From contig JAOUKV010000007.1 in the NCBI GenBank assembly GCA_029882355.1, positions 10,114 to 74,113 on the forward strand: 64,000 nt of DNA, given 5' to 3'. The first letter of the stretch is position 1, and each line of letters begins with the position of its first letter. Positions 3,371 through 36,326 of the stretch are shown here, in pieces. The notes under the pieces are model-generated. The model saw only the letters and a program-made list of their open reading frames with translations, made no database searches and was not told where the DNA came from. A program made the position numbers and the translations under genes. This DNA is from Gammaproteobacteria bacterium. Lineage in GTDB: Bacteria; Pseudomonadota; Gammaproteobacteria; SZUA-229.

Positions 3371-4159
3371 CTAACTCATTTCGTCTTCAAAGGTGTTATT
3401 ACATGAGCATGTTGCTGTTGACTCAGATTGTAAAAAATATTCATCAAGTCTTGCCACTATATCATTGGGTTTAAACGGCTTGGCCAGACGGCCAGTTTCA
3501 CTACTGTCAGCCTCAACCACAGAATCAGTCGATGTCATTACAATAACTGGCAGGTGTTGACCAAATTCAGTTTGTCTAATTCTTCTCAGCACCTCATTGC
3601 CATCAATGCCGGGCATTACAATATCGAGCAATACCAAATCGGGGCACTGCTTTTCTATTTCTTCCAGCGCATACTCACCATCAGCAACTTCAACAACTTC
3701 ATAGCTAGCCTTAACCAATATCTTTTTCGCTATAGCACGAACCATACGACTATCATCTACCACCATAACTTTTTTTATGCTTAATGGTTTCTCAACGACA
3801 GCGGGTGCCTTCTCAATTTTCTCTATATCAAGAAGTTTAAGAACTTCAGCAGTATCAGATAAATCATGTTCCACAATATTACTTATATAGGGTAAACCCG
3901 AGACATCCTGTTCAAAGAAAAAACGTGCATACTCAATATTTTTAATATCTAGTAATGCAGCATTACCGCGTTTGGTTTTATATCCTACATCAATAATTTT
4001 TCCATGATTGAAAGAAAAACCTGCACCATCACCATTATTGGTTACCAGTAATAGAACGCCATCCCAATCTTCATGACACGCCAAAGAAAGTAATTTTTTC
4101 ACTTCATCAAAAGCCACCAGGTTGCTTTGATACACTGTCACTCTCTCTTGACTCACCAA
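3371..4159 (-). CDS. Response regulator with C-terminal REC domain and an uncharacterised ~130 aa N-terminal domain (PATAN/DUF4388-like architecture)
   Basis: The C-terminal receiver reads VMVVDDSRMVRAIAKKIL...DLVLLDIVMPGIDG...MTS. The N-terminal domain has no motif I recognise. Confidence 0.7.
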   Translation of the reverse strand: MVSQERVTVYQSNLVAFDEVKKLLSLACHEDWDGVLLLVTNNGDGAGFSFNHGKIIDVGYKTKRGNAALLDIKNIEYARFFFEQDVSGLPYISNIVEHDLSDTAEVLKLLDIEKIEKAPAVVEKPLSIKKVMVVDDSRMVRAIAKKILVKASYEVVEVADGEYALEEIEKQCPDLVLLDIVMPGIDGNEVLRRIRQTEFGQHLPVIVMTSTDSVVEADSSETGRLAKPFKPNDIVARLDEYFLQSESTATCSCNNTFEDEMS

Positions 4160-4199
4160 CCCTTCCTCTTAACTCTTCAACTTAATTTTCATAAAATTA

Positions 4200-5405
4200 T
4201 TAAGCACAACAATGAAGCAACTGTTTTTGTTTCCAGGCAACGAGCCAGAGTGGAATCTCAACAGCAGTAATAGCAGGACTAATAAAATAACCCTGTGCTA
4301 CATCACAACCCAACTTTTCTACTGAGTTCCATATCTCCTGAGTTTCCACGCCTTCAGCGACAGACTTAATATTCATTTTTTTTGAAAAGTCGATGGATGT
4401 TTCAACAATGACATGAGCATTTGGATCTGTCTGTATATGCTGAACAAAAGAACGATCGATTTTGAGCTCATCAAATGGACCTCGGTGCAACATCTGAATA
4501 GACGAATAGCCAGTACCGAAGTCATCAATTGATAGATGAATACCTTTCATACGTATGCGAGTCAAAATATCCAGCACATGAGAAATATCATCTGAAAATG
4601 CACTTTCGGTGATTTCGATAATCAACTGCGAAGGATCTAGTTTATGCTCAATCAGTTTTTTCTGAAGCTGATCTGGAAAATTAAGATCAGTCAAAGTTTT
4701 GATTGAAATATTTACTGCCACCTGAATCACAATTCCTTTAGATTTCCATCCACCACAATCTGCTAATGCGTTATCCAACACCAAGGAAGTCAAATCTTTT
4801 ATCAAGCCAGCCTCCTCTGCAAGAGCGATAAAGTCATCTGGCATAATTAAACCTTTATCTGGATGTTGCCACCTTACAAGCGCTTCAACAGAGGTCAAAA
4901 AATGCGAGGGTATGTCAATCTTTGGCTGGTAATAATTTACAAGTTCTTTGTTGTTTATAGCCTGTCTCAACTCATCAGCAGTTATCGGACCACTGATTTT
5001 TTTTGTCTCGGAAGACGGTACTCGAGGCTTACTTCTTCTATCTAGAATCCTCTCAAGACTATCAATCGAAATCGGCTTTTCTAATACACCTTTTACTGTA
5101 AGCCCACGACTATCAGCCAGCCCTCTTGCAGAATAAAGAACACTAAGATCGAAACCACTCATGAGTACAATTTCAGCTTTTGAATCAACACTAGCGAGAT
5201 ATCTAATCAGTTCTACTCCATCCATACCCGGCATGGTGAGATCAATAATAATAATATTTAGATCATGGCTGTACTGCTCAATAAATTCCTGAGAATCGCT
5301 AATACTGGTCACTTCATAGCCAATATTTCTAGCAACAAAGCTTACAAACTCACAAACATCATCTTCGTCATCAACTACAAGAAGACGTGGGGCTTTGTTA
5401 TTCAT
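4200..5405 (-). CDS. REC-EAL c-di-GMP phosphodiesterase response regulator
   Basis: N-terminal receiver (LLVVDDEDDV...IIDLTMPGMDG) plus an EAL domain (YYQPKI, EALVRW, DDFGTGYSS). The start was moved to MNNKAPRLLVVDD at 5405 because the 5'-extended ORF overlaps the hemerythrin gene. A strong start is supported by a stop/ATG spacing of 2 nt. Confidence 0.85.
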   Translation of the reverse strand: MNNKAPRLLVVDDEDDVCEFVSFVARNIGYEVTSISDSQEFIEQYSHDLNIIIIDLTMPGMDGVELIRYLASVDSKAEIVLMSGFDLSVLYSARGLADSRGLTVKGVLEKPISIDSLERILDRRSKPRVPSSETKKISGPITADELRQAINNKELVNYYQPKIDIPSHFLTSVEALVRWQHPDKGLIMPDDFIALAEEAGLIKDLTSLVLDNALADCGGWKSKGIVIQVAVNISIKTLTDLNFPDQLQKKLIEHKLDPSQLIIEITESAFSDDISHVLDILTRIRMKGIHLSIDDFGTGYSSIQMLHRGPFDELKIDRSFVQHIQTDPNAHVIVETSIDFSKKMNIKSVAEGVETQEIWNSVEKLGCDVAQGYFISPAITAVEIPLWLVAWKQKQLLHCCA

Positions 5406-5832
5406 GCTTAACTCCCATCTCGTAATTATGTACACAATCAGAATAATTTTTATCCATTCCTTCAATATGATCCTTTAGCCAATCTTCAAAAAACCCCATA
5501 AACCAAACCGCCGCATTTATATCACCCCTAAATTCTGGGTTTTTCACGAAATCTTTAAGTTGATTTTCTAGCATGCGGTGAACTAGTTTATGATTTTCAT
5601 AAAAGGGATAATGACAGGACTCCATCATGTCTTCTTCATGACGAAAATGATATATCGTGTACTGTAGCAAATCATCAATGATCATGGGTAACGCTGAAGC
5701 TTCACCACTCTTTATGGTTGCCTGCAAGTGATTAAGTAACTCAAAAAGCACCTGGTGATCATCATCCAGCTCAACAATATCCACACTAAAATCTGAACAC
5801 CATCGAAATGTATTAAGTGCGTTATTAGCCAT
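5398..5832 (-). CDS. Bacteriohemerythrin (HHE cation-binding domain protein)
   Basis: 144 aa with hemerythrin His/Glu/Asp ligand spacing: HFRHEED, YENHKLVH and WLKDHIEGMD. Confidence 0.8.
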   Translation of the reverse strand: MANNALNTFRWCSDFSVDIVELDDDHQVLFELLNHLQATIKSGEASALPMIIDDLLQYTIYHFRHEEDMMESCHYPFYENHKLVHRMLENQLKDFVKNPEFRGDINAAVWFMGFFEDWLKDHIEGMDKNYSDCVHNYEMGVKHE

Positions 5833-5888
5833 TTTTCTATCCTTTTTTATCTCAATTATTGAAGCACCTAAAAATATTCATCGCGATA

Positions 5889-6242
5889 CTAAATACTGCT
5901 ACTAATCAGACTTCCATTTGAATCGATCAACTCATCAAATACCTTATGTAAATTACTACAATTCAGTGGCCGACTTATAGAGTAAGCAGAGTTAACACCT
6001 GAGACATTCTCACCAATAGAAACCATTACTTTCCCGCTATACATGCCAATTTCACAGTTGTAAATAAACTCTTTACCTTCGTCTTGCTCAAAATCGACAA
6101 TAACAACTTCTGCATTATCCTCATCTGAATATACCCAGAGTAAAGACGGGTCCAAATTTATAACTTTTAAAAATGACTTCAATATGACTTGATCATGCTG
6201 ATTTAAACCAAAAGAGGTAATTTTATGCTGCACTTCCATCAT
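5889..6242 (-). CDS. Hypothetical protein (117 aa, no recognisable domain)
   Basis: ORF in the six-frame track. The start was moved to MMEVQHK at 6242, where AGGAGAAG sits 3 nt upstream of ATGATG; the longer N-terminal extension has no ribosome-binding site. Confidence 0.5.
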   Translation of the reverse strand: MMEVQHKITSFGLNQHDQVILKSFLKVINLDPSLLWVYSDEDNAEVVIVDFEQDEGKEFIYNCEIGMYSGKVMVSIGENVSGVNSAYSISRPLNCSNLHKVFDELIDSNGSLISSSI

Positions 6243-6493
6243 GTCTTCTCCTGAGAAATAACCATGAGCAAATACTATTATCAGGGGACAAATAAACCTA
6301 TAGGAATACTCCCTATTTACTGCAGCAACAGTCAAAAAATGCGGTGTTAATTATTAGCAATAAACTATGGATATACAGAATTAATCAGCATTGTTTTATA
6401 TAAAACAGCAAGCGGAAGTTATAACCTGACTTAGAGTGCGTGTATATTTTTATTGTTGAATTGCGGGTAAAAAAGAAGGAACAAGAAGTATTA

Positions 6494-7123
6494 TCACGCA
6501 GTAACTATACCGTGGCGTATAGCATAGCGTGATAACTCAACAAGGTTTTTAACATCTAGTTTATGCATAATATTGTCACGATGGTTGCTGGCTGTTTTGG
6601 GGCTAATGTTCAAATTACTCGCTACCTCAGTCACTGTAGATCCCTGTGCGAGCAAAACAAAGATTTCAAACTCACGCTTAGATAACTCATTGATTTCAGA
6701 GGGCCTGGAACCTGTATCAGCGCCTTTATCGACTAGATCATCACTAAGGTAGAAATGATTTAGCGATACAGCTTCAATAGCCTCCAGCAACTCTGTCGGT
6801 GCACTGCGCTTGGTGACATAACCATTTACACTGAGCTTTTTCATATTTTCAACATGACTAATGTCATCATACATGCTTAAAACGATAACTTTGACCTGAA
6901 CATCTTGTGCTTTAATTCGTCGTACCAGCTCCACACCACCCATACCAGGCATATTAATATCACAAACAATAAGATCAGGGCTCTGTTCCAAATAAACTTT
7001 ATAGCCAGTCTCTGCACTACCTGCTTCGATCACATCATAACGCCCATTAGACAATAGCAGGCTCTTAAATCCTGCGCGCACAACTTCATGATCATCAACC
7101 AGTAAAATTTTTAGATTGCTCAT
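6494..7123 (-). CDS. NarL/FixJ-family response regulator (GacA/UvrY-like, REC + LuxR HTH)
   Basis: MSNLKILLVDDHEVVRAGF...DINMPGMGG receiver and a C-terminal LuxR-type HTH (LSKREFEIFVLLAQGSTVTEVASNLNISPKTASNHRDNIMHKL). Confidence 0.9.
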   Translation of the reverse strand: MSNLKILLVDDHEVVRAGFKSLLLSNGRYDVIEAGSAETGYKVYLEQSPDLIVCDINMPGMGGVELVRRIKAQDVQVKVIVLSMYDDISHVENMKKLSVNGYVTKRSAPTELLEAIEAVSLNHFYLSDDLVDKGADTGSRPSEINELSKREFEIFVLLAQGSTVTEVASNLNISPKTASNHRDNIMHKLDVKNLVELSRYAIRHGIVTA

Positions 7124-7125
7124 AT

Positions 7126-8535
7126 TTAGTCAATTTCTGCTATTTTTAAATTAATACGTACAAATAGTGATACTCCAGCTCCATCACGACTGGATATATT
7201 AATAACACCGCCAAGTGCCTCTACACGTTCATGCAAACCGAAAATTCCCATGCCATGTTTATTTTGTTTTTTATCCTCTGAAAAACCAATGCCATTATCT
7301 GATATTTCAAGCTCAAAAAAATCAGATGATGCCGCAGATTCATTGAGTATTTTTTTTCTTTGCATTTTTATCTGTACTTTCGATGCTTTTGCATACTTGG
7401 CAATATTCGTTAACGATTCCTGCACAATTCGGTAGATTGTTAGTTGGACCAACTGATCCATTGTTTCTACTTCGCCGGCTATATCCAGTTTGATATCCAC
7501 ATCTGTATGGTGGAGACCGGAAGCATGAATGCATGACTGTATCGCAGCCTCTAAACCTAATGTATCTAATACAACGGGGTGCAGCCGATACATCAACTCA
7601 TGTGCAGAATCATACATTTTATCCGCAACGTCTGAAATACTTGTTGCACTTTGTTGATAGAAATCTGTAGTAACATTAGTTGCCCCGGACATTGCTGAAG
7701 CTATAACTCGCACCGCAGTAAGTGACTGGCCTATCTCATCATGTAGCTCTCTTGCAATTTCATGGCGTACATCCTCCTGAACTTGCAGCATTCTGCGTGC
7801 AAGATTTCGTTTATCGATACTGAGTTTTAACATTGCTCTCTGCGCGCGTTTCATGCTTGTTACATCAAGCGCAAAACCTGCTAATTCATTATTTCCTGAA
7901 GTACGAAAGATATAGTGCATCAACCATAATTTTCCCTGTGAGGTGGCATGCTGGCTTTCAAAAAAATATTGTCCATGTCGCATGATCATTTCATATTTGC
8001 CTGTAAGATCATGAAAAATGTCCGTCGCTGGCACCCCAGTCTGAACATCCACATTTAAATCTAGTTTTGATAAGGCAGCACCCACCATTTCCTGAATCAT
8101 TTCATGCTGATCGACGCGATAATAAATAACGGGAATTTTTCTCAACAATGAGCGTATAGACTTATCGTGCTCTACCCGTTTTCTCATAACTGAAATGGGC
8201 TCTGCAATGTCGACACCCATCTGCAGAAAACCATCTTTACCATTATCTAAAATAACTGGCGAGAAAGAGACTTTATGCCAGATTTTTTTATCTTCGTAAT
8301 AGGTATCATAAAATGCTGGAGCTTTTTGATATTTAATATAATTACATAAGGGGCAGTCTGCCTCTAGAAGTTTGTTAGAATGAAAAAATTTATGGACAGT
8401 TGCGTTCAAAAGAACGCTTTCTTTCATGCCTGCAAACGCAATAGCTTCTTTATTGACTTGAATAATTTTACCTGAATGATCAATGATAATCACTGGATAC
8501 GGAATCGAGTCCATTTGAAAAGGATTATGTAGCAC
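7126..8535 (-). CDS. Cytoplasmic PAS-domain sensor histidine kinase (HisKA_3/NarX-type)
   Basis: 469 aa with no TM segment. It has N-terminal PAS-like repeats, an H-box ELHDEIGQSLTAV typical of HisKA_3, and a HATPase domain (ISDNGIGF...GMGIFGLHERV). A 3-nt spacing to the downstream NarL-type regulator indicates a cognate pair. Confidence 0.85.
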   Translation of the reverse strand: MLHNPFQMDSIPYPVIIIDHSGKIIQVNKEAIAFAGMKESVLLNATVHKFFHSNKLLEADCPLCNYIKYQKAPAFYDTYYEDKKIWHKVSFSPVILDNGKDGFLQMGVDIAEPISVMRKRVEHDKSIRSLLRKIPVIYYRVDQHEMIQEMVGAALSKLDLNVDVQTGVPATDIFHDLTGKYEMIMRHGQYFFESQHATSQGKLWLMHYIFRTSGNNELAGFALDVTSMKRAQRAMLKLSIDKRNLARRMLQVQEDVRHEIARELHDEIGQSLTAVRVIASAMSGATNVTTDFYQQSATSISDVADKMYDSAHELMYRLHPVVLDTLGLEAAIQSCIHASGLHHTDVDIKLDIAGEVETMDQLVQLTIYRIVQESLTNIAKYAKASKVQIKMQRKKILNESAASSDFFELEISDNGIGFSEDKKQNKHGMGIFGLHERVEALGGVINISSRDGAGVSLFVRINLKIAEID

Positions 8536-8550
8536 TGTGCTAGTGCCTCC

Positions 8551-8934
8551 TCATAGCTTTGTTTTAATTTCAGTTAGAATTTTTTCTAAATCCTCCAGGG
8601 CTATAGGCTTGCTCAATGTATCTATAACTGACATACCCAAGTCTGTTCCCACTGTTTTTGCCCAATTCAACATATAGTCACCGTGACCACTCATTAAAAT
8701 AATAGGACAGCGATTACCCGCAGAGCCTAACCACTCAAGTAAACCAATTGCATCAATATCTGGAATCGCAACATCCATTAGCAACAAGTCAGGCGACATA
8801 AGCAAATAGGCTTCCTGAAAATCCTTGCCGCTGGACATGGTAATAACCTCATAACCTGTAACCTCCCCGGCAAAAGAGGCAAATTCGCCCATATCTGGTT
8901 CATCATCAACAATTAATAAAATTGGTTTACTCAT
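8551..8934 (-). CDS. Single-domain response regulator (REC only)
   Basis: ILLIVDDEPDMGEF...LLLMDVAIPDIDA...ILMSGHG. The start was chosen at MSKPILL (8934), preceded by GGAGAAGAGAATA. The longer track ORF would overlap the upstream kinase by 56 nt. Confidence 0.75.
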   Translation of the reverse strand: MSKPILLIVDDEPDMGEFASFAGEVTGYEVITMSSGKDFQEAYLLMSPDLLLMDVAIPDIDAIGLLEWLGSAGNRCPIILMSGHGDYMLNWAKTVGTDLGMSVIDTLSKPIALEDLEKILTEIKTKL

Positions 8935-11900
8935 TATTCTCTTCTCCATCAATCTCAAATCGGACACGCTGTGCAAGCTCAAGCTTACTATAGGGTTTAG
9001 CTAATCGTTTACTAGCCAAAAGTCTTAAATCTTTGCTGAGATCACTTCCTCCCCGGGTATATCCCGAGACCAGTAATATCTTAATTTTTGGATGCAGCTG
9101 CAGTGCCGCTGTCGATAATTCATAACCATCCTTACCACCGGGCATAATAATGTCACTGAACAGTAAGTCGATTTTTTCTCCACTTTCAAGAAATGTCATA
9201 GCTTGTTTGCTATTCGTGGCCTGCAATACTCGGTAACCAAGTTCGCTAAGATAAATAGTCGCCACTTCAACGAGTTGAGGTTCGTCATCAACCACTAATA
9301 TCGTTTCTGTTCCAGTTGGCAATACAACCTTCAACTTACTATCCAGCACATTTAATTCATCTTTATCAGATCTTGGCAGATATATATAAAAGGTTGTACC
9401 AGCGCCAGATTCAGAAACAACATCTACATATCCATGAGAACGACGAACGAAACCATGCACCATGCTTAAGCCCAGACCAGTTCCTTTACCTTTCTCTTTG
9501 GTAGTAAAAAAAGGATCAAACATACGTTGCTGCACATCTTTACTAATGCCAGAACCAGAATCCGATACACATAAAACAACATAATCACCCGCACTGCTAC
9601 CATGCATATATGATGCTTTATCCTCATCTACGATTTCATTGTACACGCTAATATCCAGTCTGCCGTTTTCCTGCATAGCATCTCTAGCATTAATTACCAG
9701 ATTAATCATGGCATCCTCAAGATCGCCGGCATCAATGTCGGTCAACCAGAGATCATGCTCCAACTCATAGTTCACGCCAATATTTAGCCCGGCGGTTTTG
9801 TCTATCATAGATCGCATATCTTCAAGCATTTTACTTACAGATATGGTCTTCACCTCAGCAGCATTCAGCCTTGAGAAGCTAAGCAGACGTTTGGTTAATG
9901 CGCTACCACGTTTTGCTGTCTTAATCCCACTATCAATCCATTTATTCATATCAGCATTGTCACCTGAAAAACGTCTCAAGATTTCCAGATTACCACTCAT
10001 AATGCCAAGTAAATTATTAAAGTCATGAGCGATGCCACCCGCCATTTCTCCAATCGCTTCCAGCTTTCGTGACTGACGGATAATTTCTTCATGTTTACGT
10101 TGCGCTGTAATATCACGTTTTATCGCAACAAAGTTAGTGGTTTTCCCCGACGCATCCATCACCGGAGTGATATATTCCTCTTCCAGATAAATCTCACCAT
10201 CGCTACGTTTATTATATAACTCGCCGTGCCATGTTTTTCCTAATAATATAGTTCGCCACAGCTGCTCGTAGATAGAACTATCCTGCTTACCGGACTTTAA
10301 TATATTTGGTTTTTTACCTATGACCTCTGCAAAGGCATAACCCGTCATATTTTCAAAAGCCGGGTTAACCCACTGAATGATTCCTTCATTATCTGTAATG
10401 ACAATACCATCGGCAGCAGCTTGCAGAGCTTCTGATTGTAGATACATCTGTTCTTGCGCTTCTCGATGTAGAGTAATATCTTCGTTTAAGGACAGGTAAT
10501 TTATGATCTTGCCATTCGGAGATTTTATGGGAATAATCCTTGTGGATTGCCAAATAAAATCACCATTTTTATTCCTGTTATGGAAAACACCATTCCATTG
10601 CTGCCCACTAGTAATAGTTTGCCAAAGGTGCTGATATACTTTAACGGGCGTCTCACCTCCTTGAAATATTTTTGTATTTTTTCCAATCACATCTTCCGCG
10701 CTATAGCCGGTTATTGCTGTAAATGCAGCATTTGTATATTCAATATCACCCTTGATGCTGGTGATAATCATTGAAACAGGGCTTTGCTCAACTGCCAGAG
10801 ATAGTTTTTGCAATTCAGTTTCTCGAATTTTAATTGAACGAGCCATTGAATTAAAAGAGCTTGTTAGAAAAGCTAACTCATCATTACTTGATGGCACAGA
10901 AATTTCTTCATAACGGCCTCTACTCAGAGCTTCTATTCCCGCTACCAAACGACTCACAGGATGTAAAATTGTACGTCTTAAAAAATAAACGCCCAATGGA
11001 AATAACAAAAAAACATTGACCAACAGCACCACAATCATTGCTTTTTGTAGAATAGTAAATTCAGGGTACAACCTGGGTAACTCAAAGATAAACTTTAGAC
11101 TTTTTCCGTTACTCACTGGGTAATTTGCAATGCCATAAATATAATCTGGCTGTTCGACAAAATGCCAGCCCTGTAAATTTCCTGCAGCTAAATCTTTAGA
11201 GGATAATGCATCAATTCTTTTACCAATCTGAGCTTGATCCCCAGTAGAAATCCAGTTGCCATCATCAAAGGACAGATAAAAATCCAACTTTGCATACCTA
11301 CTAATACCTTCAACAAATGATCGCCCCAGTTCTCCTATCGTAATCAGGCCTACCCTCTCTTTAGATTTGTCATGAAGAGGTATTAAAACAGGTGAATGAA
11401 AACCCACAGTAAACCTGTCACCATGAGCATGAATATGGACATTGTTTTGATCGTTCTCATGTTCTTCAAAATTCATTGCTTTTTCTTTTACCGGCTCAAG
11501 CCAGAAAGGTAACTTATCTACTGGCTGATAATTTTTCAGTGTAATGTCTGAAATAAAATACTGGGGTATTCCTTTGTCATATGAAATATAGCCAATATGA
11601 CTTTGATATTTCTCATCAACAAAAGCAAAACTCGCTAGACGCATATATCCGTCATAGGCTGCGATAACACTTACATTCTCTGCTTTTAGCAACTTAACCA
11701 ACTCACCAGCCAAACTTTTCTTTTCAGAATCAAAAACAATTGACTGATAATCCTTTGGATTCTGATAGTGAGAGATCATACTCAACGAAGAAACAACATC
11801 CTCACGCATGGAAAATGAGCGCACATTTCTAAGTAGATTTTTACGATTATCGATATAAACACTTAAATCATCAAAAGCCTCATCAATTTGTTTATGAGCG

Positions 11901-12019
11901 GAATCTCGATTAATCTCATTATTGAGAAACAAAAAGACTGATCCCAAAATTAACAAAGAGAGAATTATTGAACTAAGCCAAAAAAACAATAATTTATGAT
12001 CAAGTTTAAATGTAATCAT
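8927..12019 (-). CDS. Hybrid sensor histidine kinase (periplasmic sensor - TM - HAMP - 2x PAS/PAC - HisKA - HATPase - REC)
   Basis: 1030 aa. It has an N-terminal TM segment, a periplasmic region of about 290 aa, a second TM (MIVVLLVNVFLLFPLGVYFL), PAS/PAC repeats, H-box [12 protein letters not shown], HATPase motifs DSGSGIS and GTGLGLSMV, and a C-terminal receiver (ILVVDDEPQLV...DIIMPGG). Confidence 0.9.
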   Translation of the reverse strand: MITFKLDHKLLFFWLSSIILSLLILGSVFLFLNNEINRDSAHKQIDEAFDDLSVYIDNRKNLLRNVRSFSMREDVVSSLSMISHYQNPKDYQSIVFDSEKKSLAGELVKLLKAENVSVIAAYDGYMRLASFAFVDEKYQSHIGYISYDKGIPQYFISDITLKNYQPVDKLPFWLEPVKEKAMNFEEHENDQNNVHIHAHGDRFTVGFHSPVLIPLHDKSKERVGLITIGELGRSFVEGISRYAKLDFYLSFDDGNWISTGDQAQIGKRIDALSSKDLAAGNLQGWHFVEQPDYIYGIANYPVSNGKSLKFIFELPRLYPEFTILQKAMIVVLLVNVFLLFPLGVYFLRRTILHPVSRLVAGIEALSRGRYEEISVPSSNDELAFLTSSFNSMARSIKIRETELQKLSLAVEQSPVSMIITSIKGDIEYTNAAFTAITGYSAEDVIGKNTKIFQGGETPVKVYQHLWQTITSGQQWNGVFHNRNKNGDFIWQSTRIIPIKSPNGKIINYLSLNEDITLHREAQEQMYLQSEALQAAADGIVITDNEGIIQWVNPAFENMTGYAFAEVIGKKPNILKSGKQDSSIYEQLWRTILLGKTWHGELYNKRSDGEIYLEEEYITPVMDASGKTTNFVAIKRDITAQRKHEEIIRQSRKLEAIGEMAGGIAHDFNNLLGIMSGNLEILRRFSGDNADMNKWIDSGIKTAKRGSALTKRLLSFSRLNAAEVKTISVSKMLEDMRSMIDKTAGLNIGVNYELEHDLWLTDIDAGDLEDAMINLVINARDAMQENGRLDISVYNEIVDEDKASYMHGSSAGDYVVLCVSDSGSGISKDVQQRMFDPFFTTKEKGKGTGLGLSMVHGFVRRSHGYVDVVSESGAGTTFYIYLPRSDKDELNVLDSKLKVVLPTGTETILVVDDEPQLVEVATIYLSELGYRVLQATNSKQAMTFLESGEKIDLLFSDIIMPGGKDGYELSTAALQLHPKIKILLVSGYTRGGSDLSKDLRLLASKRLAKPYSKLELAQRVRFEIDGEENNE

Positions 12020-12105
12020 GTATAAGAATTCACTCTAAAATATTAGATTCGTCTGATTAATATTGTTATTCAACATACGTCTTTCATAATGATTTATTTA
12101 GTACT

Positions 12106-13278
12106 TCAATCAGCCTGCGTATCTATCACAGGAAACAATAGAACAAAACAACTACCTTTTCCTACTTCTGTCTCAACAGTAATATGCCCTCTATGGTCAT
12201 GCATAATCCCATGCACCATGGCCAGCCCCATTCCTGTTCCCTTATCTGTACCTAATTCTTTGGTCGTGTAGAACGGATCAAAAATACGTTCTGAAAATTC
12301 TGATTTTATGCCACATCCAGTATCACAAACTGAAATCCGTATATAGTCACCCTCAAATTTTTCATGGCACGAGGAACATCCGTTTACAATATTTTTAGCA
12401 TACTGCAGGCCAATAGTAATACTCCCCTTTCCCTGCATAGCATCTAGTGCATTTAGGCATAGCTCTATTATCAGTTGATGTACTTGTTCTGGACGCGACA
12501 TGATTGCCAGATCAACATCTTCCAGTTTCAGCTTAAGCTCAATACTCGACGAAATATCAGATGTGATCATTGTTAATGATTCTTTAATCAACGGTGCTAG
12601 CATGCAAACTTCCAACTCCCCCACGCGACCATGCCCTTGTGTGAATGTCAGCATTTTTGCTACAAGGTCGCGCACACGCTCACTCGATGAATATATTTGC
12701 TCAACATAATGCTGCATTTTACTGTCACCAACGACTTCAACTTTATCTTTTAGCAGTTCCGTATAACCCATAATAGTGCCTAGAAGATTATTAAAATCAT
12801 GAGCAATACCACCGGTTAACTGCCCGATCGCTTCCATCTTATGTGCTTGCTTTAATTGTTTTTGTAACTCGGCCTTTTTCGCCTCAGCTTCAATTCGTTC
12901 AGCCTGCAAATCCAGCATTCGTCTACCAACTTTCAGCCTCGCTTGCAATTCAGCATTTTCGAAGGGTTTAACAATATAATCGTTAGCACCTGCTTCAAGT
13001 CCTTCAACAATATCACTCGACTTATTACGCGTGGTTAACAGGACAATATAAGGCGGGTCTTCAGTATTCTGCTGACGGATACGTTCGCATAATGCCTTGC
13101 CATCCAGTTTTGGCATCTCCCAGTCAAGTAACAACAACCGAGGACTTTCATCTCCCTGCAAAATATCCCAGGCAACTATACCATCTTCAGCTAGCACAGG
13201 CTGATAGCCCCACTTAACTGTTACACCTGACAGAATGGAACGAGATGTAACATCATCCTCAGCGATCAGCAACTTCAT
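12106..13278 (-). CDS. REC-histidine kinase fusion (receiver + HisKA + HATPase)
   Basis: [16 protein letters not shown]...DWEMPKLDG receiver, a coiled-coil linker, H-box [15 protein letters not shown] and HATPase motifs DTGCGI and [15 protein letters not shown] overlap with the upstream kinase. Confidence 0.88.
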
Positions 13279-16200
13279 AAGATTTTCTCCATCTCAACCT
13301 TTAGCTCTTCAAATTCCTGCCCAAGTTTGTGTATACACTGTTGAATAGTATCTATATCTGCTTTTTTTCCAGCCAGTTCTATTTTGAGTGCAATGGAACT
13401 CAATGCCATACCGCCTACATTTGCAGAGGCGCCCTTGATCCTATGAGCCATTCCTGCAATTTCTTTGGCATCCCCAATTTTCACCAATGATCTAAGCTGA
13501 TCGATCTGTATAGGCATATCTTGCAAGAAAACTTCTGCCACTGTGGTAATGAGATCCTGATCGCCCATCAATCTTTCACTCATTGCCACCCGATCAAACA
13601 CTAGCTTTTTAATTATTTCATCGTTGTTATCACCATCAGGCTTTATCATGGATGCTTGTTGGGATAACCTTATTTTATTATCACCTGGAGCTGATTGTTT
13701 ACGGAGTTCCTCAGGCAACCAGTGCTCAAGCACCTGCTGAACCTTCAAAACGTCTATTGGTTTAGAAATATAATCATCCATGCCAACTTCAATGCAATGT
13801 TCACGATCACCTTGCATAGCATTAGCAGTCATAGCGATAATAGGAATTTTATGGTCTTTAACATTGGTCGCCGGGTCACGAATCTGACGTGTAGCATCAA
13901 AGCCATCAAGTACTGGCATCTGACAGTCCATGAAAACAAGATCATAGGGCAACTGCTGAAGTGCACTGATCGCTTCAGCACCATTGGCAGCAAAATCAAT
14001 ACGTACACCAAACTTTTCTAACAGGCCTTTTGCGACCTTCTGGTTAACCATGTTATCTTCCACTACCAAGACACGTGCATTAAACGTTTTTACCATTATA
14101 TTTTTTTTATGAATAGTAAATTGGTCATCCGGATTACTGTCATCATCGACAGCTAGCATTAAATTATAAAGTTCCGACTGATTGACAGGTTTGCTGATAT
14201 AACCGCAAAAGCTAACCTCCAGGATTTTTTGAGCTGCACCAATCTGCCCCTGATTACCAAGTAACACCAGGCGAGTTGCTGACAGTTGCTTATCGTTAGC
14301 GATTTGCCTAGCCAGTAGCATACTATCTATATCTGAGATATGCATATCAACTAGTACAAAAGTGTAAGGCTTATTCTGCAAGACAGCATCCTGCATTATC
14401 TGAAGTATCTCAGATCCATTTTCGACCAGAGTATTTTCTATCTGCCATGAATCAAAAATTTCACCAAACAATTTTAGGCTAGCGATGCTGTCATCAACAA
14501 CCAATATTCTATCAACATGAAGCTTGTTTTTTGAGAGTAATGGTCTTTGCTGCTCTGAAACTAGCAACGGTAGTACAAACCAGAAAGTACTTCCTATGCC
14601 TGGTTTACTTTCTATACCGATTTCACCGTTCATAAGATCGACTAATTGCTTACAAATAGAAAGCCCGAGTCCAGTACCACCGTACTTGCGTGTTGTTGAT
14701 CCATCTGCCTGGCTAAAACGTTCAAACAAATTCTGTTGCTGCTCATTAGTAAGACCTATACCGGTATCGCTCACTGAAAAACACAGTAATACACCTTTCT
14801 CTGGATCATCTATACGCTCACAGGTAACTTTAACTTCTCCCTGTTCAGTAAATTTAATGGCATTAGCAACCAAATTAGTCAAAATCTGACGAATACGTCC
14901 AGGGTCACCTCGATAATTACATTGCTGAATAAAGTTAGCAGGACAAAGCAGTTCAAGCCCTTTATCCTCGGAACTGAATGTCATAGTGCGGGCAAAATCC
15001 TCCATCAATTCTACTATGTCAAAGTCCAAAAGTTCCAGCATGAGTTTGCCATCCTCAATCTTAGAAAAATCCAGAATATCATTAACTATAGAGAGTAGTG
15101 ACTCAGCACTATTTTTAATAGTCAAAGCACGCACATGCTGTGCCTGACTCAAATCATTTTCAAGCATAAGACCACTCATACCAATAACACCATTCATTGG
15201 TGTACGTATTTCATGACTCATATTCGCAAGAAAATCACTCTTGGATTGGTTAGCACACTTAGCCAGGTCTAGTGCATCAGCCAGTTCCAGTGTCCGTTGC
15301 TCAACAGCGATCTCTAGCTCATCACTATGTTGGTGAAGCGCCATATTTTTAAAATTGATTGATTGTAAAAGGGCATTAAAACGCTTCGCGAGGAGTCCAA
15401 TCTCTCCTTTATCTTCAATCTTAATTTCCCTAATAAAATCTATGTTTTCAAATTCATCCGTATTCTTCATCAAAACCTTAAGAGGAATAAGCAAGCGCTC
15501 AGCAAAAACCCAGCCTATAACTGTGATTAATAGAAAACTGACCCCACCAATAACAAAAAATCGCTCAACCAGATTATCTTTAATTAAATCCAGTTTACTT
15601 TTTGGATAACTAAGTAAAATTGAGCCTTCCATGCTCGGGTCTATAAATTGTAATTTGCGTGCAGAAACAAAGTGATTAACACCATTGAGTTGCATCATGG
15701 CCATGACATGGCTAATAGCTTCTTCTTCAGACAATAACGATTTATACGAGATATAATTCATCGGAATATCAATCATACGATTTTCACTCGTATTAAAAGT
15801 CGAGGCCATCACTCCTCGCCGACGAACAATAGTAATGTCCGTTAGGGTGTCTTTTTTCATGCCCGCAATTAGAGCATCATTGACAACATAACCAACAAGA
15901 ATAACACCAAGAATTTTTCCACTTTCATTTTCGTAATATATTGATGGTGCATATATAATAAGGCTATTTAAATCCTGAACTATGGAGAATTTAGTTTCAT
16001 TCTGCTGCAGTGCTGTACGCACGACTTTCCATGACATTAAAGAAGCACCGAGTAACTCTTGAGTCTCCGAGTGTGCAATGATGCGCCCCTCAGCATTCAT
16101 GAGGACAACAACATCAGCAGCCGACGCTTCTTTAAAGTATGCCATGGTGGCAGATTTTTCCTCTGAGCCATGTGATGAAAACATACCAGGCAGATGCTTA

Positions 16201-16433
16201 TCGTTAGCAAAATGCCGAGCCCAGTTCTCCGATACCTGACCTACAAGAGAAAGGAAATTTTCAGCCATGGCTTCTGTAGTGTGAAAACTTTCATGCATAG
16301 CAAGGTAAAAATCATCTTCTGCTAACCTGAGCACCATAATCCCGGAAACAACTTCAACAGCTAACACAACCACGACAAACAGGGATATAACCTTGAAACG
16401 TAATCTATGATAAAAAGGAATTTTAACATTCAT
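13275..16433 (-). CDS. Unorthodox hybrid sensor kinase (periplasmic Cache-like sensor - TM - HAMP - HisKA - HATPase - REC - REC - Hpt)
   Basis: 1052 aa with two TM segments flanking a periplasmic domain of about 250 aa. H-box [15 protein letters not shown], HATPase motifs DTGIGL and [11 protein letters not shown], two receivers ([11 protein letters not shown]...; [12 protein letters not shown]...DCQMPVLDG) and a C-terminal Hpt ([13 protein letters not shown]). Confidence 0.9.
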
Positions 16434-16445
16434 GTTTACTGGGTC

Positions 16446-17819
16446 TTATTTTAAGTTTTTTTCAGGGTAATGTTGTCGATAAGCATCGATCATCCATTTC
16501 ACTGACTTATCATCATGGCAACCACTATTCTGACAAGAGCTGGGCATATCATTTTTCTGTGCGACTTCTGGTGTGATGATTTTAAAAGCATGGTTACGGA
16601 TACTTAAAAATCCACCAGTCGTAACAATGCGTGGCATATGGCAATCCGCACAGGTCACGGTCGCTGTGGGACAGGGGTAATGAGGCACACCAGTTTTCGC
16701 CACATTATGCGACATACTATCAATATGGCAGCCACCGCATTGTGTAACGCCATCGCCAGAATGAGGCAACGCTTTATCACGCCCATGTGGTTCATGGCAT
16801 GCAACACAGGTCACACCAAATTTGGCGGTTTCTAGAGTAGGCTTTTTGTCTTTATCTGCGTGGCGATAGTCAGTAGAGTGGCAATATAGACACTCGTCGG
16901 TCAACTCGCCTCTATCACCACCTTTTTCATGTTCTTCCTTAAGTTTTTTTACTGCATTAGCATGCTTAGATTTAGACCAGTCACCAAATTCCTGATGGCG
17001 GTTCTTAGCGATACCATTACCCCAAAAAAACTTACCTTTTACGTCCTGTTTAGGAGTCATAGGTGAGATTGCAGATGTCAGATCCTCACCAGGTTTGTAA
17101 TTGACAGGGAAATTAAATATAGCACCGTGTACACCATCTTTAGGCGTGTTCTGTCCACGATTATGGCACTGACCACAAACGGTGGCAGAAACGCTACGAA
17201 CAATATCTTTTTTATTTGACAAATCAGCCGATTCATTTACATGGCAAAGTATACAAGGAGATGAAGTTATCTTTCGCTTATTTTGCACATGTACACTTCC
17301 AGGGCCATGACAGGCTTCACAACCAATACCAAATTCGGCAAATTTCAGCGTTGCTGGATCAAAGCCTGTGGTGTGACAACCATTACATTTCTTTGACATG
17401 GGCGTTTGCTTCCAGTCATTGACTTTATAGGCTTCCCATTTCTTCAACATAACGTGCCATTTTGCGGGCAGAGGATAATATTCACCATCAATCATGCGAG
17501 CATAAACCTGCTCCCACTTGCTACCGAGAACATATTCAACGTCTTCTTTTTTAAAGGTCAGCGCGGGGTCAGTAGAATTGAAATCGCCTAAGATACGTTC
17601 TCCCGTTGTTACCGGGAGAAACATGTATGGATGTAGGGTATTTGACTTCCATGAATCATAATTTGACGCATGACAATCACGACATTCCTCAGAGGTTATA
17701 TAAAGATTTTGATCGGAAACGCCATTATGAAGATAAATCACAGAACCGATTGCGATTACTACAAAAATTGCAATAAGACTAAATAGTTTTTTCATTAGAT
17801 TCTCAAAAAAATACGGCAT
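16446..17819 (-). CDS. Membrane-anchored multihaem cytochrome c (9 CXXCH + 1 CX4CH)
   Basis: 457 aa with N-terminal TM/signal anchor KKLFSLIAIFVVIAIGSVIYL. Haem sites are CRDCH, CNGCH, CEACH, CILCH, CGQCH, CLYCH, CVACH, CGGCH and CADCH, plus CQNSGCH. It sits 12 nt upstream of the 1052 aa kinase on the same strand. Confidence 0.85.
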   Translation of the reverse strand: MPYFFENLMKKLFSLIAIFVVIAIGSVIYLHNGVSDQNLYITSEECRDCHASNYDSWKSNTLHPYMFLPVTTGERILGDFNSTDPALTFKKEDVEYVLGSKWEQVYARMIDGEYYPLPAKWHVMLKKWEAYKVNDWKQTPMSKKCNGCHTTGFDPATLKFAEFGIGCEACHGPGSVHVQNKRKITSSPCILCHVNESADLSNKKDIVRSVSATVCGQCHNRGQNTPKDGVHGAIFNFPVNYKPGEDLTSAISPMTPKQDVKGKFFWGNGIAKNRHQEFGDWSKSKHANAVKKLKEEHEKGGDRGELTDECLYCHSTDYRHADKDKKPTLETAKFGVTCVACHEPHGRDKALPHSGDGVTQCGGCHIDSMSHNVAKTGVPHYPCPTATVTCADCHMPRIVTTGGFLSIRNHAFKIITPEVAQKNDMPSSCQNSGCHDDKSVKWMIDAYRQHYPEKNLK

Positions 17820-33894: not shown

Positions 33895-36326
33895 TTAGTG
33901 ATGGTGTACTCTAACTCCAGATTTCTTTCCTTTTGTGCTTGTTTTTCTGTTACTTGCAGAGTCATCTTCAAGTGGAGTAGGCATTTTTTCAAGTGCTATT
34001 TCAAGTACTTCATCGATCCAGCGCACCGGCTTAATATCCAATTTAGACATAATGTTTTTTGGGATATCAACCAGGTCTTTTTCATTATCATGCGGAATAA
34101 TAATAACCTCGATGCCTGCACGATGAGCTGCCAACAGTTTTTCTTTAAGCCCACCAATAGGTAAAACTTCACCACGCAATGTAATCTCACCGGTCATCGC
34201 AACATTGGCATTAACAGGTATACCCGTTAGCGATGAAGCTAACGCAGTGCACATGCCGACACCAGCACTAGGACCATCTTTAGGTGTTGCACCTTCAGGC
34301 ACATGCACATGAATATCTTTATCATCTTGGAAATTACTAATCAGGCCTAACGACGCAGATCGACTACGAATCACCGTCATTGCAGCCTGGATAGATTCCT
34401 GCATAACATCACCCAACTGACCGGTGTGAGATAGTTTACCTTTACCCGGCATTACGGCCGACTCGATAGTTAATATTTCACCACCAACTTCGGTCCACGC
34501 CAACCATTAACCTGACCTATCTGATTGTGTTTCTCAGCCACGCCATAACGGAAACGTTTTACGCCCAGATATTTTTCAATATTTTTTGAGGTCACAGAGA
34601 CGACTTTGCTCTCTGGCTTGAGTACCATTTGTTTAACCACTTTACGACAAATCTTGGCCAGTTCTCGCTGCAAGCTACGAACACCCGCTTCACGAGTATA
34701 AAGTCGAACAATGTCTCTCAAGGCTGACTCATTAACCTGTAACTCACCATCTTTCAGGCCATTTTCTTCCAGCTGCTTAGGCAATAAATATTTTGTTGCT
34801 ATAGCCACTTTTTCATCTTCGGTATAACCCGGTAGGCGAATCACTTCCATACGATCCAGCAAAGGCGCGGGGATATTCATACTATTCGATGTCGCAACGA
34901 ACATCACGTCAGAGAGATCAAAATCGACTTCTAAATAATGATCGGAAAAGGTGTGATTTTGTTCTGGGTCAAGCACTTCTAACAAAGCTGATGCAGGATC
35001 ACCCCTGAAATCTGCCGCCATCTTGTCAATTTCATCCAGCAAAAACAATGGATTACGAGTACCAACCTTGCTCAAGTTCTGAATCACCTTACCTGGCAGG
35101 GAGCCAATATAAGTCCGGCGATGACCACGAATTTCAGACTCATCGCGTACACCGCCTAAAGACATACGGGTATATTTACGATTAGTTGCACGCGCGATAG
35201 ATTCACCTAGTGACGTTTTACCTACACCCGGTGGTCCCACCAAACACAAAATAGGTCCTTTGAGTTTTTTCACGCGCTGCTGTACTGCAAGATATTCGAG
35301 AATGCGTTCCTTAACTTTTTCAAGACCATAATGATCATCATTGAGCACCTGTTCGGCGCCCGCAAGATCACGTCGTATTTTTGATTTTTTCTTCCAGGGA
35401 CAATCCGCCAACCAATCAATGTAGTTTCTAACTACAGTCGCTTCTGCAGACATCGGCGACATCATTTTTAGTTTATTAAGTTCACTAGTGGCCTTCTTTT
35501 CAGCCTCTTTACTCATACCCGCTTCGGCAATGCGTTTTTCAAGCTCTTCAACTTCATTGGGCACATCATCCATATCACCTAATTCTTTCTGAATCGCTTT
35601 CATCTGCTCATTCAAATAATACTCGCGCTGACTTTTTTCCATCTGCTGCTTAACTCGTCCGCGAATACGCTTTTCGATTTGTAACAAATCAATTTCAGCA
35701 TCGATCAAACTCATTAGATATTCAAGTCGCGCATGCACACTGGAAATTTCAAGAATTTTCTGTTTTTCATCCAGCTTTAGCGACATGTGTGCCGCAATGG
35801 TATCGGATAATCTTGAGGGTTCGTCAATACCCGCCAATGAGGTTAAAATTTCAGCAGGTACTTTTTTATTGAGTTTCACATACTGATCGAAGACGTTCAG
35901 GATAGAACGCGACAAAATATCGATTTCACGATCATCTTCATCTGTAACCTCATCCAGCGCTGAATAATTAGCGACAAAAAAATCACCTCTTTCATGCAGG
36001 CCTTCAACTTTTGCTCGCTGCACGCCTTCTACTAAAACTTTAATAGTTCCATCGGGTAATTTTAACAACTGAAGAATCGTCGCCAATGTGCCAATTTCAT
36101 GCACATCATCAATGCCGGGCTCGTCGATATCCGCACTTTTCTGAGCAATCAATAAAATCTTTTTATCACCCTGCATTGCTGTATCGAGTGCATGAATTGA
36201 TTTTTCGCGCCCGACAAACAAAGGGATAACCATATGGGGATAAACCACAACATCACGTAACGGTAAAACCGGAATTTCAGTTGTCACGGATGAGCTGGAT
36301 TGATCTTTATCACTTGAACTGGCCAT
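33895..36326 (-). CDS. lon: ATP-dependent protease Lon, reading frame split by an apparent 1-nt deletion near 34500-34504
   Basis: ORF 34470..36326 carries the Lon N-terminal domain and AAA+ module (GPPGVGKTS). ORF 33895..34503 carries the S16 protease domain with catalytic PKDGPSAG. E. coli has the contiguous sequence [12 protein letters not shown], but here the frame breaks between QVNG and LAWTEVGG. Confidence 0.9.

Follow-up and report, generated by a model that had tools for sequence, protein, structure and literature searches.

What does a cytochrome with ten c-type haem motifs do when its gene lies directly ahead of a sensor kinase gene? This question is raised by a 64,000-nucleotide stretch of DNA from a Gammaproteobacteria bacterium of the SZUA-229 lineage (assembly GCA_029882355.1, contig JAOUKV010000007.1, positions 10,114 to 74,113; hereafter the window), for which a first-pass annotation had proposed a sensory redox input rather than a respiratory role. 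Comparative genomics strongly supports this proposal, as inferred from sequence and synteny, in that the orthologous cytochrome is paired with a gene for the same kind of sensor in 26 of 26 loci. We consider it reasonably probable, from sequence relationships, that a respiratory multihaem reductase has here been recruited as a periplasmic redox or ligand co-sensor of the adjacent sensor protein.

Conserved pairing of the cytochrome with a sensor

The pair in the window comprises the following features:

16446..17819, minus strand: decahaem c-type cytochrome gene (open reading frame and translation; the 449-residue form matches the public annotation and homologue starts; OcwA homology)
17730..17786, minus strand: N-terminal transmembrane anchor of the cytochrome, residues 12-30, LFSLIAIFVVIAIGSVIYL (hydropathy 2.76; AlphaFold helix)
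16434..16445, minus strand: 12-nucleotide spacer from the cytochrome TAA stop to the kinase ATG
13275..16433, minus strand: hybrid histidine kinase, 1052 residues (Pfam/NCBIfam, hydropathy)

The spacing given by the first-pass annotation is exact, with 12 nucleotides between the TAA and the ATG. The kinase consists of a first transmembrane helix (TM1, residues 15-33), a periplasmic region (residues ~34-291; window 15561-16334), a second transmembrane helix (TM2, residues 292-316), a HAMP-like linker, and a cytoplasmic part made up of HisKA, HATPase, REC, REC and Hpt domains; it resembles BarA/TorS-like hybrid kinases at scores under the NCBIfam equivalog cutoffs. Its residues 1-380 are homologous to the gene found downstream of every orthologous cytochrome.

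Scanning a collection holding one genome per species, we recovered 15 orthologous loci and 65 loci of distant paralogues. The orthologues (46-60% identity, each with nine CXXCH motifs and one CQNxxCH) come from Sedimenticolaceae, tubeworm and bivalve symbionts, Marinobacterium, Gallionella and Sideroxydans, as well as Thermodesulfobacteriota, Desulfocapsaceae, Nitrospirota and Sulfurimonadaceae. The next open reading frame (ORF) on the same strand matches a hidden Markov model (HMM) of the N-terminal 300 residues of the kinase, covering both transmembrane helices and the periplasmic region between them, at all 15 loci (E 1e-128 to 2e-30). Individual homologues led to the same arrangement in six more loci, including those of Magnetococcus sp. 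PR-3 and the Solemya pervernicosa symbiont, and a search from the sensor side, using a narrow alignment against metagenomes, gave four loci with the cytochrome immediately upstream in each. Together with the window, we thus observed same-strand pairing in 26/26 loci (15 + 6 + 4 + 1), spanning Gammaproteobacteria, Gallionellaceae, Magnetococcus, Nitrospirota, Thermodesulfobacteriota and Sulfurimonas, that is, at least six phyla or classes. The spacing between the paired genes ranges from a 46-nucleotide overlap to a 40-nucleotide gap, and many pairs share a 4-nucleotide ATGA overlap.

Output swapping was also observed directly among these partners. Hybrid kinases (the window, L001, L004 and L082), plain kinases (L003, L005, L010, L013, L081, L083 and L086), HAMP-GGDEF proteins with intact GGDEF and RxxD motifs (L006, L008, L009, L012 and L087) and a PAS-GGDEF-EAL protein (L007) all follow the cytochrome. 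Relatives of the sensor domain are likewise diverse: an exhaustive HMMER search returned 117 matches, against only two from word-indexed searches with a single sequence or a profile, and 61 relatives comprised 39 kinases, 16 GGDEF proteins and one nucleotide cyclase. The Pfam family dCache_3 (PF14827) is matched by 25 of these 61 domains and by several of the orthologous partners, with E-values down to 1e-15; the periplasmic region of the window kinase itself gives only sub-threshold matches to sCache_3_2 and CHASE4, and the sensor-domain profile matches the PDC domain of CitA weakly (E 4e-4). By these profile matches, the periplasmic domain of the partner is probably of the double-Cache kind. 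Its alignment contains no invariant Cys or His, and only seven of its columns are invariant.

Two of the loci carry unusual partners. In the Solemya pervernicosa gill symbiont (CP054491; L084, 7371-9963), the GGDEF-type sensor lies in at least five frameshifted pieces beside an intact cytochrome, the gene having either decayed to a pseudogene in this symbiont or been broken up by errors of long-read sequencing. In a Sulfurimonas sp. (L015, 9362-10078), the partner is a 238-residue ORF holding the sensor domain without an output, and is either a truncated or a stand-alone periplasmic form.

A coincidental or merely inherited adjacency, with no functional link between the two genes, could in principle place a cytochrome next to a sensor. 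We give this explanation almost no credence, and the synteny data effectively refute it: the pair is kept at every locus across this taxonomic range even as all flanking genes differ and are unrelated between loci, and it is kept though the cytoplasmic half of the sensor is exchanged, the two genes often overlapping. At L087, for example, the cytochrome and a HAMP-GGDEF protein form an isolated two-gene operon between PPK2 and Mfd genes on the opposite strand. Among the five annotated loci (L081-L083, L086 and L087), no electron-donor or quinol-dehydrogenase gene is adjacent to the pair.

The cytochrome gene and its product

The ORF at 16446-17819 occupies exactly this span of the minus strand, which had gone unstated in the first-pass annotation; a plus-strand reading was rejected, the frame being riddled with stop codons. 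Counted from the first ATG the product has 457 residues. The deposited protein (NCBI MDH5387700.1, 'multiheme c-type cytochrome') has 449 and begins at Met9 (window 17795), a start that most homologues share, and the eight additional residues from the ATG at 17819 (MPYFFENL; 17795-17819) are missing from homologues and public annotation alike. Met9 is the likelier true start, giving a protein of 449 residues. An exact look-up of the 457-residue product returned no record, because public gene calls begin at Met9.

Nine CXXCH motifs (at C46, 145, 167, 189, 215, 310, 338, 361 and 390) and the CQNSGCH at residues 429-435 were confirmed by re-translation, so that the count initially reported for this protein, along with its N-terminal anchor, stands. 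Chance does not explain the ten motifs, because shuffling the protein 20,000 times, with its Cys/His-rich composition retained, gave a mean of 0.05 CXXCH and a maximum of two, and because all ten are invariant both in a set of 26 homologues and in one of 108. The sole N-terminal hydrophobic segment, residues 12-30, has a Kyte-Doolittle average of 2.76 over 19 residues, coincides with a predicted AlphaFold helix (residues 2-23 in the 449-residue numbering; predicted local distance difference test (pLDDT) score >90), and has a comparable counterpart in 101/108 family members. Both this helix and the pairing with a sensor of the inner membrane point to a periplasmic protein held at that membrane; alternatively, the segment may be cleaved as a signal peptide. 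Four homologues of ~508 residues (P0095, P0105, P0118 and P0119) bear a C-terminal extension of ~50 residues with an extra CXXCH and a match to PF09626, and are 11-haem variants of the same sensor-linked family.

Fold, haem complement and comparison with OcwA

A phmmer search of solved structures yielded a single full-length match, to 6I5B (E 9e-41 over query residues 35-442; E 4e-59 with the family profile), followed by 6QVM (1.8e-17), c554 (2.4e-8) and MccA (2e-4). These first two structures are OcwA (TherJR_2595), a nonahaem cell-surface cytochrome of Thermincola potens that acts as a terminal reductase in extracellular electron transfer, and the undecahaem cytochrome OmhA (PMC6703420, PMC9250108). 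An AlphaFold model built from the 108-sequence alignment (pLDDT 85.5, predicted TM-score 0.83; an earlier model from 26 sequences, at pLDDT 59.7, was unusable) gave the same order in Foldseek: OcwA (E 1.6e-25, TM-score 0.70, 30% identity), OmhA (5.6e-12) and MccA (1.4e-3). Given the full-length sequence match to OcwA and these structural matches, the fold is already known, and the protein is a member of the OcwA/OmhA/MccA branch within the NrfA-c554-HAO superfamily. The earlier suggestion of an Otr/HAO-like or novel multihaem fold accordingly holds in its superfamily part (NrfA/c554/MccA/OcwA), and the idea of a novel fold falls, the nearest solved relative being OcwA.

Pfam and NCBIfam returned only generic multihaem domains. 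Membership of MtrA/DmsE (TIGR03508) was rejected at 40.3 bits against a cutoff of 192.2, from a partial match, and that of NrfA (PF02335) at 18.8 bits against 24.1, with no CXXCK motif present; OmcA/MtrC, GSU2203 and c554 fell far under curated cutoffs or were absent. The tetrahaem quinol dehydrogenases of the NapC/NirT/NrfH family carry four haems in ~200 residues. That family was likewise rejected, being absent from the Pfam/NCBIfam matches at E <= 0.01, and ten haems here occupy 449-457 residues. The first-pass statement that the protein suits neither the NapC/NrfH nor the MtrA size is upheld, and the scores exclude these families as well.

The homology to OcwA and the haem-motif complement, both observed directly, allow the motifs to be placed as follows:

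17727..17729, minus strand: His31, directly after the membrane helix, invariant in 108/108 homologues
17670..17684, minus strand: haem motif 1, CRDCH (equivalent to OcwA haem 1)
17373..17387, minus strand: haem motif 2, CNGCH (equivalent to OcwA haem 2, five-coordinate in OcwA)
17307..17321, minus strand: haem motif 3, CEACH
17241..17255, minus strand: haem motif 4, CILCH, an extra haem on an insertion absent from OcwA and the octahaem paralogues
17163..17177, minus strand: haem motif 5, CGQCH (equivalent to OcwA haem 4)
16989..17006, minus strand: pocket K272-N-R274-H275-Q276-E277, 94-99% conserved in 108 sequences (OcwA alignment)
16878..16892, minus strand: haem motif 6, CLYCH (equivalent to OcwA haem 5), without a counterpart in the octahaem paralogues
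16794..16808, minus strand: haem motif 7, CVACH
16725..16739, minus strand: haem motif 8, CGGCH
16638..16652, minus strand: haem motif 9, CADCH, followed by the invariant Met395
16515..16535, minus strand: haem motif 10, CQNSGCH (CX4CH; family signature SCQNxxCH), aligning with OcwA haem 9, CSSCH

All nine haem positions of OcwA are kept in the same order, as is its beta-sheet domain, at ~30% identity. Outside the motifs, the residues invariant among the 108 homologues are H31, H63, H177, H345, H380, H410 and M395, and H275 (present in 107/108) and H286 are 99% conserved. Six of these histidines (H63, H177, H286, H345, H380 and H410) and M395 align with conserved OcwA residues, equalling in number the six bis-His haems and one His/Met haem of that protein. 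Within haem motif 10, C429 and C434 are invariant and Q430 and N431 are 98-99% conserved.

The differences from OcwA are equally distinct. An insertion separating the equivalents of OcwA haems 3 and 4 carries the tenth haem (CILCH189), the final motif is two residues longer than a CXXCH, and the N-terminus bears a membrane helix with the invariant His31, a residue outside the OcwA alignments, in which the first aligned query residue is 35. At the other end, the match stops at OcwA residue ~437 of 526, and the cytochrome continues for ~22 residues, one short helix, past its last haem; the C-terminal three-helix bundle of OcwA (PMC6703420) is lacking. Unlike OcwA, moreover, the family is mostly Gram-negative and always sensor-paired. 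In OcwA, two haems are five-coordinate, and over each lies a distal His that does not bond to it (H282 and H381 as numbered in 6I5B; PMC9250108). By alignment, H275 corresponds to H282 and R274 stands in place of H281, and the equivalent of H381, the distal His of haem 5, is position 378, which varies among K, R, V and E. Haem motif 2 is, on this alignment, predicted to be an open, ligand-binding haem.

A further residue of possible redox relevance is Cys383 (window 16671-16673), an unpaired cysteine of an H-x-P-C-P motif three residues past the invariant His380. It is kept in 97/108 homologues (Gly in eight, His in three) and could be a haem ligand or a redox-active thiol. Haems with His/Cys ligation are typical of sulfur-oxidation enzymes and of some sensors.

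The comparison with OcwA bears on whether the protein is instead a regulated enzyme, namely a periplasmic reductase or detoxifier (of nitrite, hydroxylamine, nitric oxide (NO) or sulfite) or an electron conduit, with the co-transcribed sensor detecting the substrate itself. The distal pocket of haem 2 is conserved, and a membrane helix close before haem 1 recalls the anchors of quinol-oxidising NapC/NrfH-type proteins. OcwA reduces nitrite and hydroxylamine and has two open haems (PMC6703420), and SHP cytochrome operons with sensor-kinase and regulator genes have been interpreted in this manner (PMC2909971). The second active-site His of OcwA, however, is unconserved by alignment, and roughly one quarter of the partners have a diguanylate cyclase or phosphodiesterase output with no DNA-binding regulator nearby; at L087, an isolated two-gene operon, the cyclase cannot be a transcriptional regulator of the cytochrome. 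In SHP operons the type of sensor varies and electron-donor genes are present (PMC2909971), whereas here the sensor domain is constant and co-varies with the cytochrome, and the annotated loci have no adjacent donor genes. Weighing both sides, we regard an enzyme regulated by its neighbour as unlikely.

Octahaem paralogues in respiratory settings

The 65 distant paralogue loci (L016-L080) encode proteins of 22-34% identity over the full length, mostly with eight CXXCH motifs and an MccA-type haem complement. They share with the decahaem family its superfamily, an N-terminal hydrophobic segment and, at haem 2, a pocket of the 'HHQQY' type, but neither the inserted haem nor the OcwA-haem-5 segment is present in them, their last haem motif is an ordinary CXXCH, and His31 is not conserved. 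His31 is a candidate distal ligand of the additional, tenth haem, given that the paralogues without a conserved His31 are also those without the inserted haem.

The HMM of the kinase N-terminal 300 residues found a sensor in 0/65 of these loci. Neighbouring genes were examined in seven, through Pfam for L017, L019, L024 and L031 and through gene sizes and order for the other three. At L016, L019, L023 and L024 the cytochrome is followed by a trihaem cytochrome c and a cytochrome b561-like membrane protein, and at L017, L021 and L031 by 4Fe-4S NrfC-like and NrfD-like proteins; the examined loci are quinol-linked respiratory layouts. They represent two uncharacterised operon types of respiratory kind (e.g. 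L019 6676-9495 and L017 1733-5289), the NrfC/NrfD-like type being sometimes followed by an 11-12-haem protein.

A match to a characterised respiratory cytochrome whose partner genes have nothing to do with kinases would have spoken against a sensory role. A characterised relative of full length does exist in OcwA, yet the orthologues are sensor-adjacent at all 26 loci, and respiratory partners appear only at the examined distant paralogues. Because paralogues with respiratory layouts lack the sensor, the tenth haem and His31, the sensor-linked decahaem clade looks like a respiratory reductase lineage whose electron-donor partners were lost and to which a sensor partner, a tenth haem and a conserved histidine beside the membrane were added.

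A proposed mechanism of co-sensing

We propose that the cytochrome, as a periplasmic decahaem protein of the OcwA/MccA lineage held at the inner membrane by its N-terminal helix, would be the signal-perceiving subunit and dedicated input of the downstream transmembrane dCache-type sensor. Its haem chain would exchange electrons with redox species of the periplasm or the environment; alternatively or additionally, a small molecule may bind the open haem 2 under the K-N-R-H-Q-E pocket (R274/H275). The resulting change of state could reach the partner by direct protein-protein contact, through the periplasmic domain and/or the membrane helices, upon which the partner would switch its cytoplasmic output. 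For the window, this output would be a hybrid kinase feeding a multi-kinase phosphorelay toward a NarL-type regulator and a REC-EAL phosphodiesterase acting on bis-(3'-5')-cyclic dimeric guanosine monophosphate (c-di-GMP); elsewhere, the same pair of cytochrome and sensor would drive a plain kinase or a diguanylate cyclase.

Several features underlie this proposal in addition to the conserved pairing, the exchange of outputs and the unrelated flanking genes, and from them we infer that the two proteins touch, what kind of signal is perceived and which way information passes. Across 15 loci, the pairwise divergences of cytochrome and sensor domain are correlated. Hydropathy indicates a single-pass cytochrome and a double-pass sensor in the inner membrane, both with large periplasmic domains, and a sensor domain without invariant Cys or His fits a dependence on a cofactor-bearing partner. 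The family-specific gains, that is, the tenth haem and His31 at the tip of the membrane helix, sit at the membrane and signalling end of the molecule. The hosts, moreover, are largely organisms of redox gradients, including sulfur and iron oxidisers, chemosynthetic symbionts and magnetotactic cocci, which fits redox control of motility and biofilm formation through a phosphorelay or c-di-GMP.

The same synteny would also be expected of a signal-processing enzyme, with the cytochrome reducing or oxidising an environmental compound into, or away from, a ligand of the dCache domain in the absence of conformational coupling. Cache and PDC domains typically bind small molecules, and the catalytic-type pocket at haem 2 and the weak CitA PDC match of the sensor profile are in keeping with such a role. 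On the other hand, ligand residues cannot be assigned in the sensor domain, none of whose seven invariant columns is charged or aromatic-rich in a recognisable motif, and an obvious source of electrons for sustained turnover is lacking. Sequence alone cannot separate this possibility, which we consider rather improbable, from co-sensing by the cytochrome.

A number of points weigh against the co-sensor interpretation itself. Ten haems are far beyond the need of a simple sensor; an enzymatic role is plausible, given that OcwA is a reductase and that the nearly invariant R274/H275 pocket looks like a catalytic site; and the dCache domain could bind a ligand of its own independently. The 26 loci, furthermore, were retrieved by similarity and derive mostly from metagenome-assembled genomes, constituting a non-random sample, and the correlation between pairwise divergence of the cytochrome and that of the sensor domain (Mantel r 0.93, permutation p 2e-4, n 15) is inflated by the shared ancestry of linked genes. 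Scanning for promoter and terminator consensus sequences around the cytochrome gene gave nothing above shuffle expectation, leaving the operon undefined.

A bolder version of co-sensing by the cytochrome, which we offer tentatively and hold to be doubtful, is that the pair represents an unrecognised class of periplasmic redox sensor, whose ten-haem 'wire', derived from a respiratory reductase, would report electron pressure or an oxidant/reductant gradient and whose His31-ligated tenth haem would, by its redox or ligation state, be coupled mechanically to the sensor helices and through them to kinase or c-di-GMP output. Candidates for such a gradient would be Fe(II), sulfide, nitrogen oxides and O2-derived species.

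The signalling cluster and the remainder of the window

Behind the cytochrome-kinase pair, the region 3371-13278 of the window is an unusually dense, co-oriented cluster of signalling genes:

12106..13278, minus strand: REC-HisKA-HATPase protein, 390 residues, its ATG overlapping the hybrid-kinase stop (ATGA)
8927..12019, minus strand: hybrid kinase of 1030 residues, with a periplasmic region between two transmembrane helices followed by HAMP-PAS-PAS-HisKA-HATPase-REC (Pfam, hydropathy)
8551-8982, minus strand: single-domain REC protein
7126-8535, minus strand: PAS-HisKA_3 kinase
6494-7123, minus strand: REC-GerE/NarL-type regulator
5889-6335, minus strand: 148-residue ORF of no known kind
5398-5832, minus strand: stand-alone hemerythrin
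4200-5465, minus strand: REC-EAL protein
3371-4159, minus strand: REC protein

Relatives at 75-79% identity do not keep this cluster beside the cytochrome and carry the two-gene core only, in other surroundings. The multi-kinase cluster as a whole was for this reason rejected as part of the module, and the extended relay is, on the evidence of these relatives, specific to the present lineage. The second hybrid kinase, at 8927-12019, has its own periplasmic domain of ~300 residues (~29-328) between two transmembrane helices; this domain matches no Pfam family and shows no similarity to the cytochrome-linked sensor domain of the fetched loci. A second sensor of O2 or redox type recurs near the module: in addition to the hemerythrin of the window, the gene directly preceding the orthologous cytochrome at L086 (2246-4924) encodes a CHASE5-PAS-kinase-REC-hemerythrin fusion.

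Elsewhere in the window, a Lon protease is apparently split into two overlapping ORFs (33895-36326), of which 34470-36326 holds the substrate-binding, AAA and lid domains and 33895-34503 presumably the protease domain, which points to a frameshift or to misassembly; the genes just upstream encode trigger factor, ClpX and a probable ClpP. An IS30-like transposase (HTH_38 and rve integrase core; 40696-41856) lies between this housekeeping protease cluster and the genes that follow. Lastly, a 708-residue ORF without a Pfam match at E <= 1e-5 (57409-59535) adjoins an sbcB-like exonuclease I gene (59548-60981).

Relation to known systems and significance

The fold and the logic of a haem co-sensor are already known, and what is new is the molecular device and the conserved module. 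In H-NOX/HnoK, H-NOX/cyclase and NosP/NahK systems, the gene of a haem protein usually lies beside that of a kinase or a GGDEF/EAL protein, and direct interaction controls the partner (PMC8738867). Our module resembles these at the level of the genes, in that a haem-protein gene adjoins a co-oriented gene for a signalling enzyme across taxa (26/26 here) and the pairing persists as the output varies between kinase and cyclase or phosphodiesterase. H-NOX and NosP proteins, however, are cytoplasmic, carry a single b-type haem on an unrelated fold and sense NO or O2, whereas the cytochrome would be periplasmic and membrane-anchored, with ten covalent c-type haems, and would reach its partner via a dCache periplasmic domain.

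A separate extracytoplasmic protein that supplies or modulates the signal of a membrane kinase is also a feature of LuxP-LuxQ, TorT-TorS (and apo-TorC-TorS), HbpS-SenS and QseG-QseE; LuxQ, itself a hybrid kinase, has a periplasmic domain of double PAS/Cache-like type. These systems differ from the present one in that none is known to use a multihaem cytochrome as the accessory protein or to exchange kinase for cyclase. The use of c-type haem for periplasmic sensing is known from the Geobacter proteins GSU0582 and GSU0935 and from DcrA, where one haem resides within the receptor, as opposed to a separate ten-haem protein and a haem-free dCache sensor. HbpS-SenS is itself a pair of haem protein and kinase, HbpS being a haem-binding redox accessory protein (PMC4991794). 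Full-text searches of the open-access literature returned no description of the cytochrome-sensor pairing.

To our knowledge, periplasmic and extracellular redox sensing in bacteria is poorly understood, and known haem sensors are mostly cytoplasmic single-haem proteins. The module described here is conserved, portable and composed of two genes, combining a multihaem cytochrome with interchangeable kinase or c-di-GMP outputs. If it functions as proposed, it would add a new kind of input to two-component and c-di-GMP signalling and would show clearly how a lineage of respiratory enzymes can be turned to signal transduction, and it might find use as a genetically encoded biosensor of redox or electrode potential. 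The organisms that carry it, among them chemosynthetic symbionts, iron and sulfur oxidisers and magnetotactic bacteria, have a way of life that centres on their position within redox gradients. Should the 'wire' version be true, sulfur and iron oxidisers, symbionts and magnetotactic bacteria would read extracellular redox potential directly.

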